64,000 nucleotides of DNA, from sequence record AB897757.1; one strand, 5' to 3'. Position 1 is the first letter of the stretch; every line of letters begins with the position of its first letter. A program made the translations under genes and the position numbers. The stretch comes from Klebsiella phage K64-1. The notes under the pieces were generated by a model. The model saw only the letters and a program-made list of their open reading frames with translations. It was not told the origin of the DNA and ran no database searches. Shown here in pieces: positions 9,796 through 59,988 of the stretch.

Positions 9796-10023
9796 ATGCT
9801 ATCTTTGAAATGCCAATATGGTGCTAAAAGAAGAAAAATCATTCTTGATATGTTAAGAGAAGGTGTTGAATTTAAAGTTAATGGTATGCATGATATCCAA
9901 ACCAAAAATGATCCAGATATTAAACGATTGTTGAAGTACAAGAAAATAGAGATGTTTAATGTGAGAAGTGGTTCATGGTCAGATCGTAGTAAACATACAT
10001 ACTTGAGGATTAAAAATGGATGA
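9796..10023 (+). CDS. hypothetical small basic protein
   Basis: 75-aa ORF. Small unlisted ORFs (about 9696-9833 and about 10017-10187) flank it. Confidence 0.3.
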   Translation: MLSLKCQYGAKRRKIILDMLREGVEFKVNGMHDIQTKNDPDIKRLLKYKKIEMFNVRSGSWSDRSKHTYLRIKNG

Positions 10024-30119: not shown

Positions 30120-31106
30120 ATGTTAAATGAATTCAAAAATGGTGTGACCGTGCCAAATGGGTATGTTTACACCAGTAAAACAGGTGCACGTTATGTTTTT
30201 CTGGAGTGTATGTGGTTTAATGAAAGTAATATGATGCTTGTTGATCCTCAAAAATATGGTAATATGTATTTGAGTGCAGTTGCACAGATCAATGAATACA
30301 ATTCATCTTCTAATGAATACAAAATTGGTAATACATATAACAAAGATAACAAAACTTGTGTTTTTCTTGGTGAATCACGATTTATTACTGAAAATGGTAT
30401 TATCATCAACGAAGATGATGAAAATACCATTCAGGTACCAAATGGTATCAGAATCACATCAAAGAATGGTAATGTTTACCAGAAAAAAGATGGTACATGG
30501 TTTGACATTAAAACCAAAAAAGCACTGAATAGTTCAGCAGCACAAAGTGTAGAACGTAGTGCACAAAAAATGATTCAAACCCATAATTCAAATGAAGATA
30601 ACATAAAAATTGGTAGTACTGTTACTTCTAAATCAAACAAAACCTATACTTATCTTGGTGGTGATCGTTTTATGGATGCTGATGGTAGATTATTACCAAA
30701 AAGTACTGCACAATCTTTAATTCAAAAACACAAAGATGAAAAAAGTTCTGGGAAAGCAGAAGATGAACAGGAATCTGGCTCATCCGATGATACCAGTACT
30801 GATACATCTACAACCACAGACACAAATACCACTGATAATACAAATAGTTCAGGTGATACTTCTGGTGGTACTGGTGATACAGATAATCAAAGTTCTGGTG
30901 GTACTGGTGATACAGATAATCAAAGTTCTGATAATCCAATGCAAGAACTTGCTAATAAAATTAATGCATCTCCATATGCACGTAAAATTAAAGTTCTATT
31001 AACTCGTGCTGATAAAGTATCTTTGTTAGCCGCTGATATTTTTCTTAGTGGGAAACGAGAAGAAGTTACACAATTTATCAAATCATTAAATAATAATAAT
31101 GAATAA
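30120..31106 (+). CDS. hypothetical protein with Ser/Thr/Asp-rich repeats
   Basis: 328 aa. Contains a perfect 33-bp tandem duplication (30861-30893 and 30894-30926) encoding SGGTGDTDNQS twice. Confidence 0.45.
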   Translation: MLNEFKNGVTVPNGYVYTSKTGARYVFLECMWFNESNMMLVDPQKYGNMYLSAVAQINEYNSSSNEYKIGNTYNKDNKTCVFLGESRFITENGIIINEDDENTIQVPNGIRITSKNGNVYQKKDGTWFDIKTKKALNSSAAQSVERSAQKMIQTHNSNEDNIKIGSTVTSKSNKTYTYLGGDRFMDADGRLLPKSTAQSLIQKHKDEKSSGKAEDEQESGSSDDTSTDTSTTTDTNTTDNTNSSGDTSGGTGDTDNQSSGGTGDTDNQSSDNPMQELANKINASPYARKIKVLLTRADKVSLLAADIFLSGKREEVTQFIKSLNNNNE

Positions 31107-46102: not shown

Positions 46103-47566
46103 TTATTCTTTCCTATATTTTGGTGTACTTGCAATATCATGCAATGGCATTCTATCTGAACTGTTGACGAAATTTACAAGTTCTGGGTCTGAACCTAACC
46201 ATGGAATTCTGTTACCATAATCGAATACTACCCATGATTGACTGTCGGCATTGTATTTCCAACATGTGACAGGATTATAGTCAGTTCTGAAAAAATATTC
46301 TCCATCAGTTGGTGTAGATGGAAACTCGGTACCTTCTGGTACTGAACCCCTTTGTGGTGGAATTTCCGGTCTGTAGTTATTAGGATCATCAATAATATCA
46401 TTAATATTAGAAGTATTGAAATTAAATTTTCCTGGGAAATTAGATGGAATAATCCACGAATCATCTTTGTATTGATATACTTGTGAATCACTATATTTTA
46501 CATAAAACTCTATGTTGTTCTTAGGTTGTTTATCTTCCTTACTATATTCAACATCACATAGCAACCAACTATTACTTGAGTTATCGTACTGGTACAATGA
46601 AAAACCACTTACATTAGTACTATCTTCTTTAAAGAAGAAATCACCATCAGTTGGATTGGATGGGAAGTTAATATCATACCCAGTACTGACAACATTCCAC
46701 ACATCATCAACATTCTCTTTAAGTACAGGTTTAGTCTTTTTAAGATATAGCATATTATTAGCTGGTTCTTCTGGGAAGTCATATCCATTTAGCATACTTT
46801 TAGATAGGTCTACATAGTCAATTCGTGGATCATAAAACTGTTCATTATCAAAATTGAGATAAGGTACATCATTTTCAGCTATTGTGATTATTTTATTCAT
46901 TATATCCATTTCATTTTGATAATTACTGTTGTTATTACCATTACCGTTGCCATTATTTGGATCATCTGGGTTATCTGGATAACTATTGTTTTGTAGTAAA
47001 TCTGAGTATTCAGGTGAATCAGTAATGGGTTTGACTCGAATTTTCCATATATGAGCTTGCCACGTAGCAGAATATCCTTCATATGTTTTAAAAGCATCCT
47101 GAACTACATAAAAACGGTTTATACCACTATCTTTACCAATAACATCGAAATCACGTAAATTTGGTAGTTCAATAACATCACCCGGAAGAATCTTTCTTCC
47201 TAAACGTTTCATCATATCGTTATAATGAACAGTTATATCCATTGTATTAAAATCAAAAAACAGGCCAGGGAGTTTCATGTCGGGAGTTGCTTCTTGCACT
47301 TGATAGACACATGAAAATGTGATAGCCTCTAGATTATATTTTCTATTCGAGGTGTCACCAAAAACCCAATCGCTAACACTGTTGATATCAAAACTTGACT
47401 CTGAACTGGAAGTTGTTGTATAATCACCAGTACTGGACGTTGGTTTTTCACCACAGTACGCGTAAAGCCACATGTCAACGCCACCTATGTTGTATTGTTC
47501 GGCAATGGCAGAATCAATAAAAGAGTAATCATTCGTTCTGCCTTTTTTCCACATCTTATAAGCCAT
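46103..47566 (-). CDS. hypothetical protein (virion structural candidate)
   Basis: 487 aa with a GNGNGNNN low-complexity stretch. Its stop is 2 nt before the previous start. Confidence 0.4.
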   Translation of the reverse strand: MAYKMWKKGRTNDYSFIDSAIAEQYNIGGVDMWLYAYCGEKPTSSTGDYTTTSSSESSFDINSVSDWVFGDTSNRKYNLEAITFSCVYQVQEATPDMKLPGLFFDFNTMDITVHYNDMMKRLGRKILPGDVIELPNLRDFDVIGKDSGINRFYVVQDAFKTYEGYSATWQAHIWKIRVKPITDSPEYSDLLQNNSYPDNPDDPNNGNGNGNNNSNYQNEMDIMNKIITIAENDVPYLNFDNEQFYDPRIDYVDLSKSMLNGYDFPEEPANNMLYLKKTKPVLKENVDDVWNVVSTGYDINFPSNPTDGDFFFKEDSTNVSGFSLYQYDNSSNSWLLCDVEYSKEDKQPKNNIEFYVKYSDSQVYQYKDDSWIIPSNFPGKFNFNTSNINDIIDDPNNYRPEIPPQRGSVPEGTEFPSTPTDGEYFFRTDYNPVTCWKYNADSQSWVVFDYGNRIPWLGSDPELVNFVNSSDRMPLHDIASTPKYRKE

Positions 47567-47620: not shown

Positions 47621-47650
47621 TTGACATTGCAATTTAATTTCTGATATAAT
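47621..47650 (+). promoter_or_regulatory. sigma70-like promoter TTGACA-18-TGATATAAT
   Basis: TTGACA at 47621-47626 and CTGATATAAT at 47641-47650, upstream of the ClpA-like gene. Confidence 0.5.
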
Positions 47651-47697
47651 GTAATCATAGTTCAATACAAAAGAGACATTTTACAAAAGGAAAATCA

Positions 47698-48195
47698 ATG
47701 AATCTACAAAAACTATTTAAAGTAAGCGATGATCTGGCAACTTCTCTTGGTCATACATATCTTACTATTGACCATATTAGTGCTACACTTCTTGAAGTTG
47801 ATAGTATTGTAGAACTATTCAATACCATGAATATTGATACAAATAAACTTCACAGTCGTGTGATGAATTTTCTGAAAAGTACTGAATATCCAAATCAACC
47901 GGCTAGTATGTCAGCTAATGGGACTAACAGTAGTTCTTTGTTGGTAAATCGCGTATTCAATGAACTGTCAAAAAAATCAGTTATTGAACAACTTAAACGT
48001 GATGATTTTACAATTGATTCATACTTTGTACTATTTGAATGCTTGTCTTTCCCAAATACAGCAAAGGCGTGTCTCGCACTGAAGCAGCACGTGCATTACA
48101 AAAACATGTGGCGAAAATCGATAGTTCCATCAATCTACAAAGTATTGCTGAAGATCCTAATTCATCAGATAAGAAAGCGACGGCGGGACAAATGA
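47698..48195 (+). pseudogene. clpA: Clp N-terminal domain ORF (ClpA N-domain, frame-shifted relative to AAA+ body)
   Basis: TIDHISATLLEVD and the second repeat NRVFNELSKKSV...YFVLFE match the Clp_N double repeat. It runs in frame 1 and overlaps the frame-0 ClpA body by 157 nt. Confidence 0.6.
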
Positions 48196-49985
48196 ATGCA
48201 ATTAAACAAAAAACTCTAGAAGATTTTACTGTAAACCTGACTAAACTTGCACAGGAAGGTAAACTTGACCCAATGATCGGTCGCCAAAAAGAACTTCAAT
48301 CACTAATTGAAGTAATGGCACGTAAAAACAAAAAGAATGCTATTCTTACTGGTGATGCAGGAGTCGGTAAAACTCAGATCGTCGATGGTTTTGCACAAGC
48401 CATTGCTGATGGTGACGTACCTGACTATCTGAAAGGTGTTGAGGTATTATCTCTTAACGTTTCTGCTGTAACTGCTGGTACAAAATACCGTGGTGAATTC
48501 GAAGAACGTATGGAAGGTATTATTAAAGAACTTAAAAAACGAGAAAATGTAATTTTGTTCATTGATGAAGTACATATTATGATGGGTGCTGGTGGTAGCA
48601 GCACTGGATCTATGGATATGAGCAATATCATGAAACCTGCACTTTCACGTGGTGATATTCGTGTTATCGGTGCAACAACTTATGAGGAATATCGCCAGAA
48701 CATTGAAAAAGATGCTGCATTTTCCCGCCGCTTCACTAAAATTGATGTAGTTGAACCTAGTATTAACGAAACACGTGAAATTATTAATGGTCTGAAAGGT
48801 ACTTATGAAAAATATCATAACGTAACATTCAGTACTGAAACAATTAACTCAATTATTAATCTGAGTTCTAAATTTTTACAAAATAAAAAGTTTCCAGATA
48901 AAGCAATTGATCTGATGGATAGTGCTGCTGCTAAAATTCGTTCAGAAAAACGTTCAGATCTAAAAGTGACGGTACGTGATATTGAAGAAGTTGTGTCCAG
49001 AATCACAAACCTTGATATTAGTGTTATTTCTTGTACTGAAAGTGAACGCATGAATAATCTACCAGATGTTCTACGTTCGCGTGTATTTGGTCAAGATGAA
49101 GCAATCGAAAAATTGGTCGATAACGTTATGGTTGCACGTGCTGGGCTACGTGATAAATCAAGTGTTCAGGGTGCTTTCATGTTTGTTGGACCATCTGGTA
49201 CTGGTAAAACTGAAATCACAAAAGCACTTGCTGAAGCAATGGGTTCTGAGCTAATTCGTTTTGATATGTCAGAGTTTTCGCAAGACCACACTGTATCTAA
49301 ACTTATTGGTTCACCTCCTGGATATGTAGGACATGAAACAGGAAATGGTCAGCTTCTTGATAAAGTTGAACAATTCCCTAATGCAGTACTTCTACTGGAT
49401 GAAATTGAAAAAGCACATCCAAAAGTACTGCTGACATTCCTACAAGTATTGGATGAAGGGCGTTTGACTGGTTCACAAGGAAAAACAGTTTACTTTAATA
49501 ATATTACTGTTATTATGACTACAAACCTTGGAGCAGCAGATTCCAATAAACGTAGTATCGGTGTAAGTACAGTGGATTCTGCACAAGAAAAAGCTATTAA
49601 AGCATTTTTACCACCAGAATTCATCAATCGCATTGATAGTATTGTTAAATTCAATGAACTATCATCAGAAGCAATTGATAGTGTAATTGACAAGTTTATG
49701 GGGGCATTGCGTGAACAAGTTAAAGAACGTGGAATTGAAGTGGTACTGACCAAACGTGCACGAGAATATCTTGCAGAGAATGGTGTTCAGAACGGCATGG
49801 GTGCTCGTCCAATGAAACGTTTGATTGAACAATGCATTCGTGTACCTTTGGCAAAAGAAATGCTTCTAGGCTCTCTGGTGAACGGTGGTAAGGTAACGTT
49901 TGATGTGATTGATGGTAAGATTGCAATTAAACAAAAAGTTAAAAAATCCACAAAGGAAATTGATTCAGCAGAATTAGAGGCGTAA
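48039..49985 (+). CDS. clpA: ClpA-like double-ring AAA+ unfoldase (D1+D2)
   Basis: D1 Walker A GDAGVGKTQIV and Walker B ILFIDEVH. D2 Walker A GPSGTGKTEITKALA, Walker B LLLDEIEKAHP and sensor-2 GARPMKRLIEQ. It is collinear with E. coli ClpA throughout. Confidence 0.88.
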   Translation: MLVFPKYSKGVSRTEAARALQKHVAKIDSSINLQSIAEDPNSSDKKATAGQMNAIKQKTLEDFTVNLTKLAQEGKLDPMIGRQKELQSLIEVMARKNKKNAILTGDAGVGKTQIVDGFAQAIADGDVPDYLKGVEVLSLNVSAVTAGTKYRGEFEERMEGIIKELKKRENVILFIDEVHIMMGAGGSSTGSMDMSNIMKPALSRGDIRVIGATTYEEYRQNIEKDAAFSRRFTKIDVVEPSINETREIINGLKGTYEKYHNVTFSTETINSIINLSSKFLQNKKFPDKAIDLMDSAAAKIRSEKRSDLKVTVRDIEEVVSRITNLDISVISCTESERMNNLPDVLRSRVFGQDEAIEKLVDNVMVARAGLRDKSSVQGAFMFVGPSGTGKTEITKALAEAMGSELIRFDMSEFSQDHTVSKLIGSPPGYVGHETGNGQLLDKVEQFPNAVLLLDEIEKAHPKVLLTFLQVLDEGRLTGSQGKTVYFNNITVIMTTNLGAADSNKRSIGVSTVDSAQEKAIKAFLPPEFINRIDSIVKFNELSSEAIDSVIDKFMGALREQVKERGIEVVLTKRAREYLAENGVQNGMGARPMKRLIEQCIRVPLAKEMLLGSLVNGGKVTFDVIDGKIAIKQKVKKSTKEIDSAELEA

Positions 49986-49993
49986 AAACAAAA

Positions 49994-50021
49994 GGAGAGC
50001 ATAAAAGCTCTCCTTTTTTTT
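49994..50021. terminator. bidirectional rho-independent terminator
   Basis: GGAGAGC-ataaaa-GCTCTCC followed by T8. Confidence 0.75.
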
Positions 50022-50022
50022 A

Positions 50023-53000
50023 TTATATAACATTTAACAAGTTATTGAGTACCAAACCGTCAATTTTCAATGAATTAGCATACACACTTACATCAATTGG
50101 TTTGTAATAATTTTTATAAACACTAAAATTAAGTTCAACACCAAGATTGATACCAGTGAATGTATATGTTTCACCTTTAGCAAAATAGTGTTCAGCACTA
50201 TACATATCTGAACGAAGGATATTGTTATTATTTCGCACATGAACTTTTTCATATCCAAGTACGATAATATCATCATAACTAGTACTACCAGTAATGATAT
50301 TATCCTTAACACTATATGTACCAACTGAAACTGGCTCCACCACATAAGTGGTATTTTCATTCTCAACTTTAGTAACACTGGTTACTGTACAAGTTGTATC
50401 ACCGATATACACTTTATCTGTTAAATCATATGAGTAAGTCCATCTTACACCATCGAACACAGGTTTAATATCATCGACGTCATATTCATATACAGTAAAC
50501 TCTAAACTTTCTGGAGTTCCAATACGAACCAGTTCATCTAATGTACCAACACCGGTATTTGGCATGAAATATCCACTATCAACCACACCATCAGAAGTTT
50601 CAACTAACTCATTAGAGATTAGCCAAACATCCAAATCTAATGGATCTATTTCATCCGTGTAATCACCATTATTCAAAGAAATATCATAGAATACATCATA
50701 GTCCATAACATCAACTCTGTAATTTCTTATACTTTCATACAACAAATCACCATTGTTATTGAACTCATGGTCTGCAAAACTTCTAATACGAATAACATTT
50801 ATACTTGTTTTTGTATAAGGTTCACCAGTATTATTAGTGGTTAAATTATTAAACTCAAGTTTATTTCCATTTAAATCAACCAAAGAATAAACTCCGTTGT
50901 TAAGCTCAACTTCAAACATAATAGGTCGATCATTCTCTTTGATTTTATCAGTACTGAGAATAAGTTCATGAGTAAAGTTCTGGTATCTGTAATAATCATC
51001 ACCATCTGGGGTAAACACCATAACTTTATCACCACTATTGAGATTACTATTTTTCATCAAGAATTCAGTACTGCTTATAATACTATCAATAGTACTGATA
51101 TAATTATAAGAGTCTTTCTTAATTACTGTGCGGTTTACATAGTTTTGTACCAGACTATATGGAGGAATGCTCACAATAGCTTCTGTACGCTTGTATGGAT
51201 TGAGAACAACAAAACCCTCTATCTGGAATCGACTAAAGTCTTTAATCTGCTGTAGAGATGTAGAATCGTTACTATAACCATCTACTGTAAAACGCATTTG
51301 TGAAATAGCATTAGCACTTGGGTTCAACTCGGAAATATCAATGAAAACTGATTCAGTCAAATCACCTTCGTAGCTCAGTGCGACAGTTTTATATTGAGAT
51401 TCCAAACCTAAATTATCATAAGCATTCATATCATTATAATACTTCTGCCCCTTGATTCCCTCAAGTACAACCATGTAGTCACTGTACATTGGATTATTAT
51501 CATCCATTTCCAGATCATCCATATCAATCTCAACTGCTGTAACTACTGAACCATCAGTAATGAAAAGATCTTCCATATATTCATCAATGCTACGATCATC
51601 AGGAATACTAACATAACTACCGTTAATATTGAATCTAATATATTTTCTCGGGATCATTACAAATGCCTGAATATCCATTGATTTACGATTACTATTCAGA
51701 ATATCCTCTGCATATGCATAAGGATCATCACTGTCTTTATCAAACGTGTTACGAATAGCAGTTAGTACATGGATAGCATCTTTGTAATAACGACCCTGAG
51801 AATCAATATCATATTTGAAACAATAGATACCGTATTCAATTTCCATTACGCTTCTGATGGTTTCTTCATCAGCATCTGGTGTTTCTTCCAAAATAAGTTC
51901 TCTATAATGGGCGAATAAATCCTCACTAATTTCAAAATATCCCATGTTGAAGTCAGAACTTGAACTAAAACCAAAAGGTAATCTCGTATTCGGATTATCA
52001 TTGTAAATTTCACCACTCAGACCACAACCAATGGTATCATGGATTACATCTGAACTCATTGAACTATAAAGTTTTAATCTATTACTCAATGTATTATATT
52101 GTGAATACATTCTAACATCTTGTGTTAAGTTAGAAGTACTATACAATTCAGAAGTGATTCTGTCTAAATCAGAAGTGAAACTTTCAGTTCTTTCAGCATC
52201 ATCAACGTTCAATTTATACCATGCATTGATAGCATCAACTAAATCCAGACTTGTATCAAAATCAGAATATAGTTCAAACATATCAACAGAAATCTGAGTA
52301 TAAATTTCATCTACCTCAACAACTGGTAGTGTATACTTGAAACGCTGGATTTCATAGTACTGTACATTATCATCAGAATTACTTACATACTTAGCATTGT
52401 TCTCTTCCAGACTTGTAACATCATATAAATCACTATCAGGCTGGCATTGAACATTATCAAATTGCATTGAGATATCAATTTCCTGGAATTTTCTATCTGG
52501 GTAAACGAAGTCGTTTGGTATTGAACCAACTACCACCCATTGTCCAGTACTTTCATTATATTCAGCATATTCATGATCCCAAATATCAGATTGTGTTTTA
52601 ACCCAAATTGTACCGTTATATTCATAACCATTTGGATCTAAATCATTACAAACACCATAAACATAATCAGTGTCGGATGTTTTCTGTTCAATTTGAGAAC
52701 GAATTTTAGTCCTGTACGGTTTAACTTCATTGAAATATTCAATAATCTGATTAATCAATTCGTCATTAGTGTAATTTTGTTTAAGTGATTGTTCTAACCC
52801 AACAATATAAATGTATGAAGTTTTGAATACCCAATCAACCACACCCTGTTCAACGTGTACGTATTTAACCATGTCAAATACAATATTACTTTGAGCTAAA
52901 TCGAATGTATTTTTGATTAAATCTAATGCACTTCTTACATTAATTTCCTTGTTGCTTAAAGAACCATCACTGTTATAAACTTCATACCCATCATATAAAG

Positions 53001-55011
53001 ATGAATTAAGAGCGATTGTGCTGTTTTGACGCCCAATAGCATTCCAGAATACAGTATTACGTGATGATGTTTTCACATACATTGTCCATCCATCTGAATC
53101 AGTGATTCGAATAACATCACCAACTTGATAGTTTTTGGTATTAGCTATATCCAGGCTGGCTTCCTGAGTATAATCAGTATTTTCATCATACCCATCACTA
53201 TACCAGTCAGCATATTCCCAGTACTGGGTCATGTCAAGAGAAGTACCAAGTGATTCAACATAATCACTCTGTTTAATCATACTATGTTGTCCTTCACCTA
53301 GACCTTCCAGTGTGATTGTTGATGGATTAGCATCAATACTCTTTGTAGTCATGAATCTTATATAACCATTACTATCGTAGTGGACGAAATATACTGAAGT
53401 TGTATCTAGCGGGGATGGTAATACACCAGTACTACTCAAAATTACTGCATCGTTTTCATCGAATTTATCAAAATCAGTTGAGACAACAAATTCGTTATTG
53501 TATGCCAGAACCCTGAATGTAACTGAATTTTCATTCACCTCAGTAGTTTTAACATTGAAAACTTCACTCATTAATACCGTATCAGTTATGATATTTTGTG
53601 TTTTGTAATAATTATTTGCACTATCTACAAACGTTCTGCGAGCTTCAATCAAATCCATAAACCAGGTTTTAGATGAACCCAACCCTAATTCTACATCAGG
53701 ATAAACAATTTCATTTACTACACCACTCTTCGTGGTTTCGTGTCCTTTCAGAGAATTCCACAGAGAATTCCATATATCTGAATTGAAATTATAGCTATCT
53801 CCTTCTTTACATAGCTGATATTGTTCATGTTTAATAATATCAACACTATCTTCATGATAAGAAACTGTCAAAATGCTGGTATCATCAGTAATTTCATATT
53901 GCATATTACTAAGAATGAATGAATTCTCGTTAATTGGTGCAAACCAAGGAACGTCCAGTAAATGTGGATCTTTAATAATACGTGCAATATCAGTACATGA
54001 TTTACTTCTGGTGTTAATTGGTGGTACATAAATTGTATCTCTTACCCAGAAATAATAATACGTAACATATGAATCAGTTGTTTCATCATACTCAATGAAT
54101 GAAGTATAATTATCCATGATTGCAGTACCAGAAGGTATATACATAGTGTTATTTTTATTATTTTTAGTTTGTTCCTGACAGTATTTGTCCCAATTATATG
54201 GCTGTACTGGAGATTTAACCCACTCAAGAACATTAATATCACTATGTGGTAGCAATCTACCCCAGTTATAACGACGATATTCATTTGTAGCATCTTCATC
54301 AATGTCACCATTCTCATCCAGTACTGGGCGAGTGTAATCCAAATAAAATGCAGTACTGGTGTCCCACCATACTTGACCAACTTTCTCAGAACCCCATGCT
54401 TGAAGAGTTTCTCCATTGCTATTGTACTGAGCAGGGTCTACTGGAGAGATATAAGATACATCTTTCATTGCAGTCCCAGGTAAAACACCATTAATTGGGT
54501 CAAATATATTAAGATATAATTCAGTAATGTTTGTTTTTGAATTATAAGTAGATGGTCTATCAAATAAAGTACTATCTGGAACATCAAAACTGTATTTTTT
54601 ATCAATATATGCCTGACGTTCGGTTGTATCACTGAATCTGGATGTATATTTGTACAGTTTTGGTCTTGTATCTGGATCAGTGAAATTAATTGTGATACTT
54701 GTATCAAACGGAACAACAATTTTAGTTTTATCATCCCCTGCCGTGAAATATTGACTTTCTACTGTTAATGCATCTGGCATAAAATATGTATCATCAACAA
54801 AATAATAATAATCACCATCATCTAATGGAGCTTCGGCATCTAATTGAACAGTACAGTACTGTTCAGCATAAGTATCAGTATTTTCAATTGGAGTAATTGA
54901 TAACATAGATACACCAGTATCAACTAAATCAAAAATGTTCCATTCCTGATTCATATCAACGAACATCCACACTGAATCTGGATTTTCACCATTATTTTTA
55001 ATATAATTCAT
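50023..55011 (-). CDS. giant virion protein (1662 aa; tail fibre/baseplate candidate)
   Basis: Long uninterrupted ORF, Asn/Asp/Tyr-rich, in frame with the upstream giant ORF across a single TGA. Confidence 0.6.
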   Translation of the reverse strand: MNYIKNNGENPDSVWMFVDMNQEWNIFDLVDTGVSMLSITPIENTDTYAEQYCTVQLDAEAPLDDGDYYYFVDDTYFMPDALTVESQYFTAGDDKTKIVVPFDTSITINFTDPDTRPKLYKYTSRFSDTTERQAYIDKKYSFDVPDSTLFDRPSTYNSKTNITELYLNIFDPINGVLPGTAMKDVSYISPVDPAQYNSNGETLQAWGSEKVGQVWWDTSTAFYLDYTRPVLDENGDIDEDATNEYRRYNWGRLLPHSDINVLEWVKSPVQPYNWDKYCQEQTKNNKNNTMYIPSGTAIMDNYTSFIEYDETTDSYVTYYYFWVRDTIYVPPINTRSKSCTDIARIIKDPHLLDVPWFAPINENSFILSNMQYEITDDTSILTVSYHEDSVDIIKHEQYQLCKEGDSYNFNSDIWNSLWNSLKGHETTKSGVVNEIVYPDVELGLGSSKTWFMDLIEARRTFVDSANNYYKTQNIITDTVLMSEVFNVKTTEVNENSVTFRVLAYNNEFVVSTDFDKFDENDAVILSSTGVLPSPLDTTSVYFVHYDSNGYIRFMTTKSIDANPSTITLEGLGEGQHSMIKQSDYVESLGTSLDMTQYWEYADWYSDGYDENTDYTQEASLDIANTKNYQVGDVIRITDSDGWTMYVKTSSRNTVFWNAIGRQNSTIALNSSLYDGYEVYNSDGSLSNKEINVRSALDLIKNTFDLAQSNIVFDMVKYVHVEQGVVDWVFKTSYIYIVGLEQSLKQNYTNDELINQIIEYFNEVKPYRTKIRSQIEQKTSDTDYVYGVCNDLDPNGYEYNGTIWVKTQSDIWDHEYAEYNESTGQWVVVGSIPNDFVYPDRKFQEIDISMQFDNVQCQPDSDLYDVTSLEENNAKYVSNSDDNVQYYEIQRFKYTLPVVEVDEIYTQISVDMFELYSDFDTSLDLVDAINAWYKLNVDDAERTESFTSDLDRITSELYSTSNLTQDVRMYSQYNTLSNRLKLYSSMSSDVIHDTIGCGLSGEIYNDNPNTRLPFGFSSSSDFNMGYFEISEDLFAHYRELILEETPDADEETIRSVMEIEYGIYCFKYDIDSQGRYYKDAIHVLTAIRNTFDKDSDDPYAYAEDILNSNRKSMDIQAFVMIPRKYIRFNINGSYVSIPDDRSIDEYMEDLFITDGSVVTAVEIDMDDLEMDDNNPMYSDYMVVLEGIKGQKYYNDMNAYDNLGLESQYKTVALSYEGDLTESVFIDISELNPSANAISQMRFTVDGYSNDSTSLQQIKDFSRFQIEGFVVLNPYKRTEAIVSIPPYSLVQNYVNRTVIKKDSYNYISTIDSIISSTEFLMKNSNLNSGDKVMVFTPDGDDYYRYQNFTHELILSTDKIKENDRPIMFEVELNNGVYSLVDLNGNKLEFNNLTTNNTGEPYTKTSINVIRIRSFADHEFNNNGDLLYESIRNYRVDVMDYDVFYDISLNNGDYTDEIDPLDLDVWLISNELVETSDGVVDSGYFMPNTGVGTLDELVRIGTPESLEFTVYEYDVDDIKPVFDGVRWTYSYDLTDKVYIGDTTCTVTSVTKVENENTTYVVEPVSVGTYSVKDNIITGSTSYDDIIVLGYEKVHVRNNNNILRSDMYSAEHYFAKGETYTFTGINLGVELNFSVYKNYYKPIDVSVYANSLKIDGLVLNNLLNVI

Positions 55012-55107: not shown

Positions 55108-58100
55108 TCAGCGGAATTTACCTTTAGGACGAGTAATCCATCTGGAATCTTCACCTTGTGAACCATAATAAACTATTTCAGTACTACTTGTACTTGTATT
55201 AACATCTTTATTAAACGTAACCAGTTGTGGTTCTTGTTTAAAATCACTGTTAATTAATTGAAATTGTAAATTTTTCTTGGCATTAACGTTTCCATAAGTA
55301 CCAACTTTAAAAGCCCACTCTTGTAGTGCTTTATATTCATCAGTATTATATGATTTAGATACACGAAGAACGCGTTCCATTACCAAATTAGAGCCTTTAT
55401 CTCTAATAAAACCACGATAAAAATCAACACGGTTGGGATTATTAGTGATCATTTGCTGTAAGTAATCACGAGTTTGATATCCAATAACATGAGTACTTAG
55501 ATCATACAGTTGAACATCAGAAACAGGATCATTTGAATCATAATAATGTTGGAAATTAGTAACTAATGTTTCAAATGATGGTAATGTACCAGCTTCAAGA
55601 ATTATAAATCCGGGTGCTTGTAGGCGACCAACCCAGTTATCAGTGATATAACCGTACATTTTCACCAATTCCTGAATAGAACCGAATGTAGGTTGATAAA
55701 TGCTATCACCAAAAATAGTTTTATCATCAAATACCACTGCATGTTCCCATGAACATACACCTAAACGAACCAACGCCATGCGTTTATCGGCATCTTCATT
55801 AACTCTAACAGTGAAAACATTACCAATTCTTGATGTTTCAACTTCATATGGGTAGATACCACTGTTATCATCGTCCAACAGACTCCAGACACCACCATTT
55901 GTTTCACTAATACTTTGTACTGAGCCAAAATAAGTTCCGAATTTGGCATTTTTAGAGCTTGGTGTACATGAAATGTAATCACCAATGGTTAAATCTGTGG
56001 TACTCCATTGTAAAAAGTACTTAGCAATAGTAGACCAGTCCTGTTGTACCCCAGTGTCATCAACATCTTCAAAAATCCATCCATGTTCAACAAGATATTG
56101 ACCATATCCACACAGGAATGTATAAACATCCTGGAATGTGTTAAGAATAGATCCATATTCAAGCGTATCATCTTCTTTCCATTCCATATAATGAACAACA
56201 GTGCGATTTCCTTCAGTTACGGTTACTTTTTTACCATTTTTAACTGGTAATTTATAAGTAAACGTAGCATTAACCAAATCATAACCTTTAATAATATAAT
56301 TACTACCATTGAAAGTGATTTTAACTGCACTAAGAACTTCATTTTTGATATTATTAGAGCGTACCAGTCCGATTGTTTGGTTTTCTTGTGAAATTAAACC
56401 AAACGATTCAGATGTAAATGTTAATTCATTGCTCTTTGTAAATCCACCAAGCTTGTGTGCAATACTGATGTATGAAGTTCTAACTAAATCACCATATTTT
56501 GAAGTAATATTCTTACTTTGATAGGTTAAGTAGTTACTAACAGCCATTTGATAACCAAGAACACGAGTATTATTTTCACCATGAACCACCGTATCTGAAT
56601 TAAAATTCAGTCGAGTTCTGGTTTCTTTGTACTGCAATTGTAAACCACCATTTTTTACAGTTTTTAGTGTATCATTTAGTGTATCCCAGAAATAATTACA
56701 GAATTGTGCTGGTTTTGCACGATATATCTGCATCATTACATCATAACTAAACATTGCGTTATTCATATAGGTGAATTCGTTGTCACCCATATCACCATAA
56801 GACCATGGTGCACTGCGTTCTTTGATCGTACCTTTTACTAAACCAAGAACGTCAGGTTGAATATAATCAACGGTACAAATTTCTTTACCATTAGTTGAAT
56901 ATTCACCTGTTTTAGTAATTACAAATGGTTGAGTACCAAAACGCTTGTACTTATCATGCTGTCCCTTACGATCTCCATATAAAATGGTACCAGTACTGGC
57001 ATCACCTTTAACACCATTAACATCCCAAAGACCACTTGGTACTAATTCACCACTTTCATTAACAACCAATGCTTCATATACATATAAAATGTCATCTTCA
57101 TTTGTGCCTACCTGAACTTCAGTTGGTTCATATTCCTGATTCCACCAGGTTGGACGAACACCAAAGCCAAACATTTCCCATGGATGAGTTGCAGGGCGAT
57201 AAGTCCCGAACTGATCAGTATATATGGCACGCCAAGAACCACGTGCAGGAAAATCGGTAATTACACCATTAACTGTATAATAGGTACCACTATAATTCCA
57301 CGTCATCCAGTTTTGTTGGTCATAATTATGAGTAGTACTGTCAATTCCGTTGGTTGCAATGAAGTTAATATACCCACGTAGTAATAATTCATCACGTTCT
57401 TCTGCACTATACTCAGTATCCCTGTAATATGGTGTTGGAAACAGATCTGAACTATCAAGTTCAGGTTGATAATCTTCATCTTTGAAAGTATTATCAATAC
57501 TGTTATAAATTCTATTCTCAAGTTCATAGATAACATCATCCATTTTATCTACACCGTTAATAACACGATAAGATTTGGTAATTTCACCAGTATGACGAAT
57601 ATTATACGGTACTTGTTTGGATGCAGCAGTCAGGTATACAGTTTTTTCTGGCTTATGTACTTTAAGAACACCCATAAATTGTGGTGTAGGTGGAATAAAA
57701 GTACGAATTGTAGTTGTAGTACTCCCTACGCCATCGTAATAGAACGCAAAAGTAGAATCTTTACCAACATTAATGTTACTCAAAATAGTATCACAAATAT
57801 CACTACTTGAAGTGCTTAAAAATTTACTTGGGTCTTCTTTATACATATTAAGCATGTAGTTTTCAAATCTGTTATTAAAACGAAGATATTCACCTTGTAA
57901 AAACATTAATGCTTCAAAAAGATCAATATCACTATTAGCAGTATGTGCCATTAGTGGAAGTAGTGATCCTTCGTTTTGAATAATTTTAGTACCAACAGCA
58001 TTATCAACTAACCCTTGTTCAAGACGTTCTTCATAATCATTGATATTATCCACGGCACCAGATGTGATATTTTTTTGTACAATTTCCTGAAAATGTAAAG

Positions 58101-59988
58101 TATAATTACTTTGATCAATATAAGAAATATTATCACTATATGGGTTATTTTGTAAATTTACTGGAATTTCATAACTACCAAGATCGGTATCTGGTACTTC
58201 AGTACTACTATAAGTTCTGATTTGAATCACACTTTCAGAGTCCAAATCAACAGAGTCACCAATGGTGATGCTTTGTACTTTACCATTAGACACATTTCTT
58301 GTATAATCTTCAACTACAACACCATTGACCTGAATTTCAATGATATCTGAACTTCCATCAATGACTTTTTGTGCCAGTTCATAACTGCGGTTATACAATT
58401 CACTCTGAATACCTTCAGTGTTTACCATATGCCAGTCATAATAAGTTTCAGATTCTTCTTTGTAGTATTGATAGGTTGCATTGGTTTCAATAACATATGC
58501 ATACATACCATCAATGGCTTGACTGGAAAAGCTTTCCATTTCATATACAGTACTGAACACTCTGTACATATCAGTGCGTTCAACTTGAGGTGTTTGTTTT
58601 ACAAATTGTTTAGAAAATTCAGTACTACGAACCCAGTCAGTTTTTAATACACTATCTTCATCACCAATGATATTGTAATAATAAAATCCAGGGATTTCTT
58701 TAGTTTCACCAGAACTGATGTATTCATAACGAGTACTTTCAATAAAATTTTCGTATATATAATAATTATAATCACCCAATTCTACATTATATCCATAATA
58801 ACTATCAACTTTGTAGTTGTAGTTAATTTTTAGTCCAAACAGAGAAGAACCACTGAAGGTACTTGACGGATATACAGTACTATCTTGTAATTTTACACCA
58901 TTTCGATCATATAACTGGAAAAGAGGGAATGCATTTGTTCCATTCTTTTTCTGAGTTGCAATCCAGTTATGCCCATTCCAGTACATAGTGGTATTTCCAT
59001 AAACTTTACCACTTTTAATTAATACAACATCACCATCAAGTGGTTCACCACTTACACGTTCTGGTGTTTCTTCATCTGGGTCTAATGCTAAACCATAAAC
59101 GCGAGTACCATCCTGCATTTGGTTGATGTATACTTTATAAATTCTGTTATTTTCACCACTGTTACCAATGCTGGTAAAAAGAATACGCATTCCGTCTAAT
59201 GGGATTTGTCCATCAATACGAATACCCTGATTAATATCTTTTTGTACGATATCTTCTGGTTTTAATGAATCACTTAGTAGATCCACCACACCACGGAACT
59301 GTGTACCAAAATTGATTAGTTCGATATCTTTGTTATATTCAATAATTGGTACTTGTGCACGTACAAAACGATTATCATATGATAATTCATCATTCAGTAC
59401 TGAACCATCTGGTAAAGTATCACCAATGGTATACCAGAAGTTTTGTAATGACCATAAGTTTCCGTTTTTAGCATTACGTTGCATTACAACATAATCAGGA
59501 CTAGCGATACCATATTCATTTTCAGTATCCCAAAGATATGAACTAAAATTAATCATTTTATTTGGATTAATTGGTGGAGTCCATGAATAAATTCTTGAAT
59601 TAAACAGTCGGCTTTGATTATCAGTAATTGCACCATAATGATTCATATAAGAAACCAGATCATCATAGAATTCAATACTACGAATACTTTGATCTACATT
59701 ACGGGAGACATAAGCTGGAGATAACTGATATGCTTGGCGTGGTTGTGTTGATTCATTAACGAAAATCTTACCACTCGCTGCTGGAGAACCCATATCACCA
59801 AGATACCCATCAACGATTTTTTGTTCAGTGGGATTAAAGAATTGTTGAATAACATCATCACATACCTTTTGGATATCTTCCAAGCCTTGCATCCATTCTG
59901 GTAATCTCTTAATGAACAACTTTTGTTGTACTGCTTCAGCCGTTTTTGTTGGTTGAAACTTAAAATCATTAGCCATGTTTAGCTCCAT
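55108..59988 (-). CDS. giant virion protein (1626 aa; tail fibre/baseplate candidate)
   Basis: Long ORF with a TAATAAATAAAA late-promoter-like element about 30 nt upstream and a terminator hairpin beyond it. Confidence 0.6.
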   Translation of the reverse strand: MELNMANDFKFQPTKTAEAVQQKLFIKRLPEWMQGLEDIQKVCDDVIQQFFNPTEQKIVDGYLGDMGSPAASGKIFVNESTQPRQAYQLSPAYVSRNVDQSIRSIEFYDDLVSYMNHYGAITDNQSRLFNSRIYSWTPPINPNKMINFSSYLWDTENEYGIASPDYVVMQRNAKNGNLWSLQNFWYTIGDTLPDGSVLNDELSYDNRFVRAQVPIIEYNKDIELINFGTQFRGVVDLLSDSLKPEDIVQKDINQGIRIDGQIPLDGMRILFTSIGNSGENNRIYKVYINQMQDGTRVYGLALDPDEETPERVSGEPLDGDVVLIKSGKVYGNTTMYWNGHNWIATQKKNGTNAFPLFQLYDRNGVKLQDSTVYPSSTFSGSSLFGLKINYNYKVDSYYGYNVELGDYNYYIYENFIESTRYEYISSGETKEIPGFYYYNIIGDEDSVLKTDWVRSTEFSKQFVKQTPQVERTDMYRVFSTVYEMESFSSQAIDGMYAYVIETNATYQYYKEESETYYDWHMVNTEGIQSELYNRSYELAQKVIDGSSDIIEIQVNGVVVEDYTRNVSNGKVQSITIGDSVDLDSESVIQIRTYSSTEVPDTDLGSYEIPVNLQNNPYSDNISYIDQSNYTLHFQEIVQKNITSGAVDNINDYEERLEQGLVDNAVGTKIIQNEGSLLPLMAHTANSDIDLFEALMFLQGEYLRFNNRFENYMLNMYKEDPSKFLSTSSSDICDTILSNINVGKDSTFAFYYDGVGSTTTTIRTFIPPTPQFMGVLKVHKPEKTVYLTAASKQVPYNIRHTGEITKSYRVINGVDKMDDVIYELENRIYNSIDNTFKDEDYQPELDSSDLFPTPYYRDTEYSAEERDELLLRGYINFIATNGIDSTTHNYDQQNWMTWNYSGTYYTVNGVITDFPARGSWRAIYTDQFGTYRPATHPWEMFGFGVRPTWWNQEYEPTEVQVGTNEDDILYVYEALVVNESGELVPSGLWDVNGVKGDASTGTILYGDRKGQHDKYKRFGTQPFVITKTGEYSTNGKEICTVDYIQPDVLGLVKGTIKERSAPWSYGDMGDNEFTYMNNAMFSYDVMMQIYRAKPAQFCNYFWDTLNDTLKTVKNGGLQLQYKETRTRLNFNSDTVVHGENNTRVLGYQMAVSNYLTYQSKNITSKYGDLVRTSYISIAHKLGGFTKSNELTFTSESFGLISQENQTIGLVRSNNIKNEVLSAVKITFNGSNYIIKGYDLVNATFTYKLPVKNGKKVTVTEGNRTVVHYMEWKEDDTLEYGSILNTFQDVYTFLCGYGQYLVEHGWIFEDVDDTGVQQDWSTIAKYFLQWSTTDLTIGDYISCTPSSKNAKFGTYFGSVQSISETNGGVWSLLDDDNSGIYPYEVETSRIGNVFTVRVNEDADKRMALVRLGVCSWEHAVVFDDKTIFGDSIYQPTFGSIQELVKMYGYITDNWVGRLQAPGFIILEAGTLPSFETLVTNFQHYYDSNDPVSDVQLYDLSTHVIGYQTRDYLQQMITNNPNRVDFYRGFIRDKGSNLVMERVLRVSKSYNTDEYKALQEWAFKVGTYGNVNAKKNLQFQLINSDFKQEPQLVTFNKDVNTSTSSTEIVYYGSQGEDSRWITRPKGKFR

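Follow-up and report, generated by a model that had tools for sequence, protein, structure and literature searches.

The question raised by the locus described here is why a gene for a ClpA-like protein should be spread over two reading frames in a jumbo phage, and whether this layout belongs to the phage or to its sequence record. The window analysed is a stretch of 64,000 nucleotides (nt) from Klebsiella phage K64-1 (AB897757.1), and a first-pass annotation, made from the sequence letters alone, had described positions 47698–49985 of it as a ClpA-like unfoldase with the N-domain in one frame (47698–48195) and the AAA+ body in another (from at least 48039). Indeed, two overlapping open reading frames (ORFs) of the plus strand are present at these coordinates, ORF1 (47698–48195) of 165 amino acids (aa) and ORF2 (48039–49985) of 648 aa, flanked by minus-strand virion genes. 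The region is the clpA gene of K64-1, a member of the genus Alcyoneusvirus (RaK2-like jumbo phages). Within this known gene the record lacks 22 nt; the gap is specific to the K64-1 record, where it is most likely an error, and the gene of the phage itself is probably intact.

The origin of the window is straightforward. Several of its proteins are exact matches to K64-1 accessions of the BAQ and YP series, the K64-1 contig being 346,602 bp in length. In megablast the clpA region shows 97–99% identity to eight Alcyoneusvirus records (among them RaK2, Muenster, KP13-7, RCIP0023, OU509535, phiKp_21 and W12-3), and the identity falls to approximately 75% for Asteriusvirus and other related jumbo phages. 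The window as a whole is colinear with RaK2, starting at base 1.

The predicted product is a ClpA-class double-ring AAA+ unfoldase (class I Hsp100) without the middle domain of ClpB and ClpC. The first-pass annotation had aligned the region by eye to Escherichia coli ClpA from end to end and had suggested profile searches of both frames. These gave Clp_N for ORF1 (Pfam, E = 1.6e-5, residues 11–59; 4.5e-6 for the intact RaK2 protein) and AAA (2e-27), AAA_lid_9 (7.5e-22), AAA_2 (2.2e-50) and ClpB_D2-small (9.4e-20) for ORF2. When the missing 22 nt are restored, residues 17–743 of the repaired protein match residues 20–734 of E. coli ClpA in one continuous stretch (phmmer, E = 2.7e-177), with residues 17–160 aligning to the N-domain and linker, and the end-to-end homology therefore holds; E. 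coli ClpA is also the best match among proteins of solved structure. ClpB and ClpC chains match the repaired protein in two stretches, skipping the M-domain, whereas the ClpA match is continuous, and thus the phage protein has no middle domain. The claim of several Clp_N repeats stands in part, as Pfam detects a single one; the second, which is the part cut by the K64-1 gap, goes undetected by Pfam even in the intact RaK2 protein. The Walker motifs of D1 and D2 and the GARPMKRL sensor-2 had been read correctly. In an alignment of eight phage homologues with E. coli ClpA, both Walker A/B pairs, the KYRG and GYVG pore loops and the GARPMKR sensor-2 are invariant (GDAGVGKT, FIDEVH and KYRG in D1; GPSGTGKT, LLLDEIEKA, GYVG and GARPMKR in D2). 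It had also been asked whether an IGF or IGL loop for ClpP binding is present. A docking loop is kept at the homologous position of D2, but the K64-1 tripeptide is IGV in place of IGL (pattern tested: [ILV]-G-[FL]); the tripeptide is IGV, IGM, LGM, VGM, VGF or IGF in seven of the eight phages and MNM in Munch. The motifs were placed by alignment as follows:

48351–48374, plus strand: Walker A1 of D1
48483–48494, plus strand: pore loop 1, KYRG
48555–48575, plus strand: Walker B1 of D1
49188–49211, plus strand: Walker A2 of D2
49320–49331, plus strand: pore loop GYVG
49389–49415, plus strand: Walker B2 of D2
49551–49571, plus strand: ClpP-docking loop RSIGVST
49800–49820, plus strand: sensor-2, GARPMKR

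Alignment with RaK2, phiKp_21 and then all seven close relatives revealed the nature of the frame break. The K64-1 record is without the 22 nt CTAGAAGCTGCGTTAAAAGAAG between 48063 and 48064, and it also carries a unique synonymous T>A nearby, at 48054, where all seven relatives have T; the single-nucleotide shift proposed by the first-pass annotation is thereby replaced by a 22-nt gap plus a substitution. The gap has no flanking microhomology and no homopolymer. It deletes the codons for LEAALKEE within the strongly conserved segment FECLSFPNTALEAAL in the second half of the N-domain, corresponding approximately to residues 119–126 of approximately 143 in E. coli ClpA, so that ORF1 consists of 122 native residues and a 43-residue out-of-frame tail. 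Since the gap falls inside the N-domain, the two frames do not meet at the border between N-domain and AAA+ body, contrary to what had been supposed. The layout of the gene in the record is the following:

47621–47650, plus strand: sigma70-type promoter, TTGACA, 18-nt spacer and TATAAT with a TG extended -10 (12/12 consensus match)
47687–47691, plus strand: Shine-Dalgarno-like AAGGA 6 nt 5' of the ATG, read from the sequence
47698–48063, plus strand: native 5' part of clpA, codons 1–122, with the first Clp_N repeat (Pfam Clp_N, residues 11–59) and most of the second half of the N-domain; identical to residues 1–122 of RaK2 gp069
48054, plus strand: K64-1-unique synonymous T>A (CCT>CCA), turning CCCTAAT into CCCAAAT 9 nt upstream of the gap; T in 7/7 relatives
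48063/48064, plus strand: gap junction, where the 22 nt of all relatives are absent (alignment with relatives)
48064–48195, plus strand: out-of-frame tail of ORF1 by translation, 43 residues (KACLALKQ...RRRDK), with TGA at 48193–48195
48066–49985, plus strand: native 3' part of clpA in the other frame, comprising the last N-domain helix, linker, D1, D2 and D2-small (Pfam and alignment); residues 131–769 of RaK2 gp069
48192–49982, plus strand: 597-aa ORF of RefSeq (exact match to YP_010842962.1), the ATG of which overlaps the ORF1 stop (ATGA, 48192–48195)
49990–50017, bidirectional: intrinsic terminator common to clpA and a convergent giant virion-protein gene (stem of 11 bp, with T-runs on each strand)

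The reading frame is broken at 48063/48064 in the K64-1 record only and is uninterrupted in every relative examined. The gene is a single one of 769 codons in 7/7 close relatives and of 762 codons in 121Q. After restoration of the 22 nt, the K64-1 protein is 100% identical to RaK2 gp069 at all 769 positions, the two genes differing in six codons, all synonymously. Against the seven relatives the ratios of synonymous to nonsynonymous codon differences are 6:0, 11:0, 12:1, 16:1, 24:2, 47:3 and 47:3; as nearly all differences are synonymous, purifying selection has acted on the gene until now, and either the gap arose extremely recently or the phage does not have it. In tblastn 179 phage records match, 102 of which cover at least 80% of the query, and each full-length phage homologue among the matches listed (approximately 100 records) is found as a single piece. 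The 769-aa protein is present, intact and identical, on 20 public contigs. Two contigs (RCIP0023 and one ENA contig) carry an exact copy of the K64-1 neighbour protein, and clpA is intact on both. In IMG/VR the K64-1 gap junction had no match, and the intact junction matched RaK2 only. The 597-aa ORF, named 'ATP-dependent protease' in the RefSeq version of K64-1 (YP_010842962.1), has an exact match on one contig only.

The gap is not the only oddity of the record, as K64-1 alone has three further unusual indels within the same 64 kb (compared with four to seven relatives). At approximately 6913 it has AA in place of 25 nt that are identical in RaK2, Muenster, RCIP0023 and OU509535 (net -23). 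At 9815 an additional A unique to K64-1 (GCCATATGG changed to GCCAATATGG) frameshifts the homologue of RaK2 ORF019, which is annotated and intact in RaK2, Muenster and RCIP0023. At 55109/55110, on the minus strand, a K64-1-unique 15-nt gap (CTGAACGCATCGGGA in the relatives) creates a TGA at the junction, so that the conserved virion structural protein of 3326 aa (RaK2 ORF070w) is divided between two ORFs of 1626 aa (55108–59988) and 1662 aa (50023–55011), the gene being intact in the five relatives with a readable site. None of these three lies at a homopolymer or shows junction microhomology, and every indel of at least 15 nt that distinguishes K64-1 from RaK2 lies on the side of K64-1. Exact protein look-up of the 165-aa ORF, the 648-aa ORF and both halves of the giant gene gave no match, and the tRNA cluster of RaK2 holds no opal-suppressor tRNA able to rescue the giant-gene TGA. 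It is unlikely that a phage would be viable with its giant structural gene cut short by a stop. As for the indel at approximately 6913, it sits in a doubtful ORF of RaK2 (ORF014w) that may be non-coding.

An error of the record is favoured because of these three other unique lesions, one of them a stop in a conserved virion protein, and of the three options put forward by the first-pass annotation (sequencing or assembly error, split gene, recoding) it is the one that fares well, the other two finding no support. It has also been noted in a published comparison that the GenBank file of K64-1 is incompletely annotated (PMC5259590). Some points weigh against an error: a deletion of 15–25 nt is not a classic signature of any sequencing platform, no independent resequencing of this single old K64-1 record turned up in the collections searched, and the evidence that favours an error is indirect. 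A real deletion, that is, a recent isolate-specific lesion making clpA a fresh pseudogene or hypomorph in K64-1, is possible but distinctly less probable than an error. The gap does stand in the public record, RefSeq calls the 597-aa ORF, the absence of nonsynonymous change suits a very recent event, and clpA might be dispensable on laboratory hosts. The products would then be a misfolded 165-aa N-fragment and at best some 597-aa delta-N ClpA, which would more plausibly arise by termination-reinitiation at the ATGA overlap (48192–48195) than by a -1 slip, where the ORF1 TGA overlaps an in-frame ATG with GGCGGG just before it. In E. coli, assembly and ClpP binding are retained by delta-N ClpA and by ClpA65, the natural Met169 product, and the K64-1 counterpart could likewise hexamerise and dock on ClpP, without the N-domain/ClpS route. 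The deletion is, however, seen in 0/7 close relatives, in 0/20 contigs with the identical intact protein and not in IMG/VR; the other lesions of the record, the giant-protein stop included, are hard to square with a viable phage; the junction lacks the microhomology usually left by replication slippage, and no Shine-Dalgarno sequence precedes the ATG at 48039. The peptide FPNTALEAALKEEGVSR would be a marker of the product of the intact gene. It is quite unlikely that the gap is genuine and K64-1 a viable natural mutant with an N-domain-less ClpA, its body being made by ATGA reinitiation or by low-level -1 slippage at C_CCA_AAT, a heptamer that the K64-1-specific T>A would have created as a compensatory change. 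If this were so, the N-domain of the phage ClpA and the ClpS route would be dispensable for growth on laboratory hosts.

Programmed or compensatory -1 frameshifting at T_TTC_CCA or C_CCA_AAT (48048–48057), giving a full-length ClpA minus seven residues, seems very improbable. The sequence TCT TTC CCA AAT does contain two overlapping X_XXY_YYZ heptamers in the correct frame, within the sole interval (48039–48192) where a -1 slip restores the frame, and the second of them owes its existence to the unique T>A at 48054. But the two-frame layout is found in none of the seven close relatives, nor in 121Q, and distant homologues are single tblastn pieces, so there is nothing 'programmed' about it. 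The region 48048–48140 has no stimulatory downstream structure (minimum free energy -12.5 kcal/mol, z = +0.87, 164 of 200 shuffles being as stable) and no Shine-Dalgarno-like stimulator upstream; heptamers ending in CCA or AAU are poor shifters in enterobacteria, and by a rough estimate, not a computed one, the probability of such a heptamer arising by chance in the 51-codon AT-rich overlap is a few tenths. The product would in addition miss part of a conserved helix. Deliberate recoding, one of the options of the first-pass annotation, was thus rejected on the uninterrupted frames of the relatives and the lack of downstream RNA structure. An intein or intron was likewise discarded, as 22 nt are too short and the segment is absent from K64-1 rather than inserted. 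Least probable of all is a genuine, selected two-gene architecture in which an N-domain protein is made separately from the AAA+ body. Two ORFs with an ATGA overlap exist, but the break interrupts the fold of the N-domain, with a nonsense tail of 43 residues as the result, it occurs in only one record among approximately 100 full-length phage homologues, and the sequence has not adapted after the break, the repaired protein being RaK2 gp069 itself. The earlier idea of an N-domain protein designed to accompany a delta-N ClpA is hence not sustained by a break that is internal to the N-domain and unique to one record.

In its normal form the locus is one 769-codon clpA with its own sigma70-type promoter, the predicted protein comprising the N-domain, two AAA+ rings and a ClpP-docking loop. 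ClpA hexamers would most likely unfold substrate proteins and pass them on to the chamber of a ClpP, the partner probably being the ClpP homologue or homologues of the phage itself, and substrate choice would probably be modulated via the N-domain by a ClpS-domain protein of the phage. The Clp partners were found by reading the whole RaK2 annotation and by Pfam scans of the candidates:

NC_019526 138875–139414, 222054–222686, 300100–300849 and 304459–305055, outside the window: ClpS-domain, ClpP and ClpP-like genes of RaK2

RaK2 ORF489 matches CLP_protease of Pfam (E = 2.4e-45) and is a true ClpP. It shares 40% identity with the E. coli enzyme, and its Ser-His-Asp triad (S111/H136/D185) is invariant in the ClpP alignment; ORF318 is a ClpP-like paralogue (Pfam, 7e-23) and ORF497 a weak third. 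RaK2 ORF154 (179 aa) matches Pfam ClpS at 24.4 bits against a cut-off of 23 (E = 2.5e-5) and is named 'Adaptor protein ClpS core domain-containing' in UniRef. With ClpA, these proteins would make up a complete Clp set for RaK2. K64-1 has its own copies of ClpP and of one ClpP-like protein outside the window (YP_010843512.1 and YP_010843279.1, exact or near-exact compared with RaK2). The prohead protease of RaK2, ORF092, is a separate T4 gp21-type Peptidase_S77 protein. In RefSeq the ClpP homologues are named 'head maturation protease'. Neither ORF048 ('Hsp70') nor ORF173 ('putative peptidase') of RaK2 matched a chaperone or protease family in Pfam, and a tblastn search of phages with E. coli ClpP had no Alcyoneusvirus among its best 60 matches.

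Because RaK2 and K64-1 encode ClpP homologues beside ClpA, and RaK2 a ClpS-domain protein, the mechanism best supported by homology and gene content is likely a ClpAP(S) protease encoded by the phage, which would be a different enzyme from the prohead protease of the T4 gp21 type. The first-pass annotation had suggested the delivery of substrates to host ClpP; an unfoldase in need of host ClpP is an incomplete idea since K64-1 encodes ClpP homologues of its own. Several points tell against a phage ClpAP(S) protease: we infer the ClpP partnership, and the tripeptide IGV is not the canonical IGL or IGF (MNM in Munch); the ClpS match is barely over the Pfam cut-off (24.4 compared with 23 bits); and no experimental work on any phage ClpA was found in the literature. 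Clp is not mentioned in the PA5oct transcriptome preprint.

The closest known system is RaK2 gp069/ORF069 (YP_007007224.1, 'ATP-dependent protease; ClpA-like'), which is the same gene at the same genome position with a matching promoter and terminator. Its orthologues are found in Muenster, KP13-7, phiKp_21, 121Q (gp581; 75% identical to the repaired K64-1 protein), PBECO4, CBB, Munch and others, and it is the 22-nt gap and the T>A at 48054 that set the K64-1 record apart from them. E. coli ClpA, the unfoldase of ClpAP (PDB 1ksf/1r6b, 6w1z), is 40% identical and colinear from the N-domain to D2-small. The two proteins share the absence of a middle domain, the Walker pairs, KYRG, GYVG, GARP and the position of the docking loop. 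They differ in the docking tripeptide (IGV in the phage, IGL in E. coli), in the second half of the N-domain, which is divergent in the phage and has a clade-specific FECLSFPNTAL motif, and in the linker between the N-domain and D1, which is longer in the phage protein. Unlike E. coli ClpA, the protein is phage-encoded, in the company of ClpP paralogues from the phage and of a ClpS-domain protein that is longer (179 aa). Compared with E. coli ClpA65 and engineered delta-N ClpA, the 597-aa ORF of K64-1 starts eight residues upstream of the Met169 equivalent and would be N-domain-less; however, the E. coli short form comes from an internal start in an intact gene, whereas the short ORF of K64-1 exists only through the gap of one record, and its start Met is not conserved in 121Q.

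More distant phages carry comparable sets. Agrobacterium phage Atu_ph07 encodes ClpX, ClpA, ClpB, ClpP and ClpS (PMC6102473), and PA5oct and Sinorhizobium phage Phosso have ClpA plus ClpP, the ClpA of both having a canonical IGF loop. In these three phages ClpA is accompanied by a bona fide ClpP, 46–64% identical to that of E. coli, and in Atu_ph07 also by ClpS. Their ClpA proteins are 37–41% identical to the K64-1/RaK2 protein and lie in other gene neighbourhoods, the 5' neighbour being DnaJ in PA5oct and peptide deformylase in Phosso. Some clear ClpA homologues have misleading product names, such as 'porphyrin biosynthesis' in NC_071039.1 (PA5oct) and 'putative virion protein and lysozyme murein' in OQ708376.1 (vB_EcoM_CRJP21).

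The first-pass annotation knew of no ClpA/ClpB-class Hsp100 described in phage genomes, but phage ClpA is already known, and from all RaK2-like jumbo phages. It has been annotated as ClpA-like since the original RaK2 record and is also present in 121Q, PBECO4 and others, and ClpA, ClpX, ClpP and ClpS have been discussed for jumbo phages (PMC7824862). The frame break is confined to one GenBank record of the 2014 era, which has other likely errors; the practical value of the observation is curatorial. The K64-1 reference, which is the exemplar of Alcyoneusvirus for the International Committee on Taxonomy of Viruses (ICTV), probably needs correction at no fewer than four sites in its first 64 kb, and the 597-aa 'ATP-dependent protease' of RefSeq is probably a truncated call. 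The wider question of why RaK2-like phages carry ClpA, ClpP paralogues and a ClpS-like protein besides a T4-type prohead protease has been noted before; the K64-1 window gives no new handle on it, and the flagged feature itself promises little.

The surroundings of clpA are conserved as well. The strong sigma70-like promoter reported earlier, which is of the host type, was found in full, and an equivalent TGnTATAAT promoter lies 5' of clpA in RaK2, 121Q, Munch, CBB and Erwinia pEa_SNUABM_47, the match in XaC1 being weaker and without the TG. In RaK2, 121Q, Munch, CBB, XaC1 and Erwinia pEa_SNUABM_47, clpA is followed by the convergent giant virion-protein gene (approximately 3,320–3,340 aa), and the common bidirectional terminator seen in K64-1 is annotated in Munch. 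This persistent pairing may hint at a client relationship between ClpA and the giant virion protein.

Two other virion genes of the window vary in length. At 30120–31106, the K64-1 counterpart of virion protein ORF049 of RaK2 has 13 additional codons, in frame, in a stretch of local divergence around 30806–30819. At 46103–47566, on the minus strand, a virion protein has 487 aa in K64-1, Muenster, KP13-7 and RCIP0023 and 486 aa in RaK2 and phiKp_21, which use a different stop; this length variant is common to several records and is not a peculiarity of K64-1.

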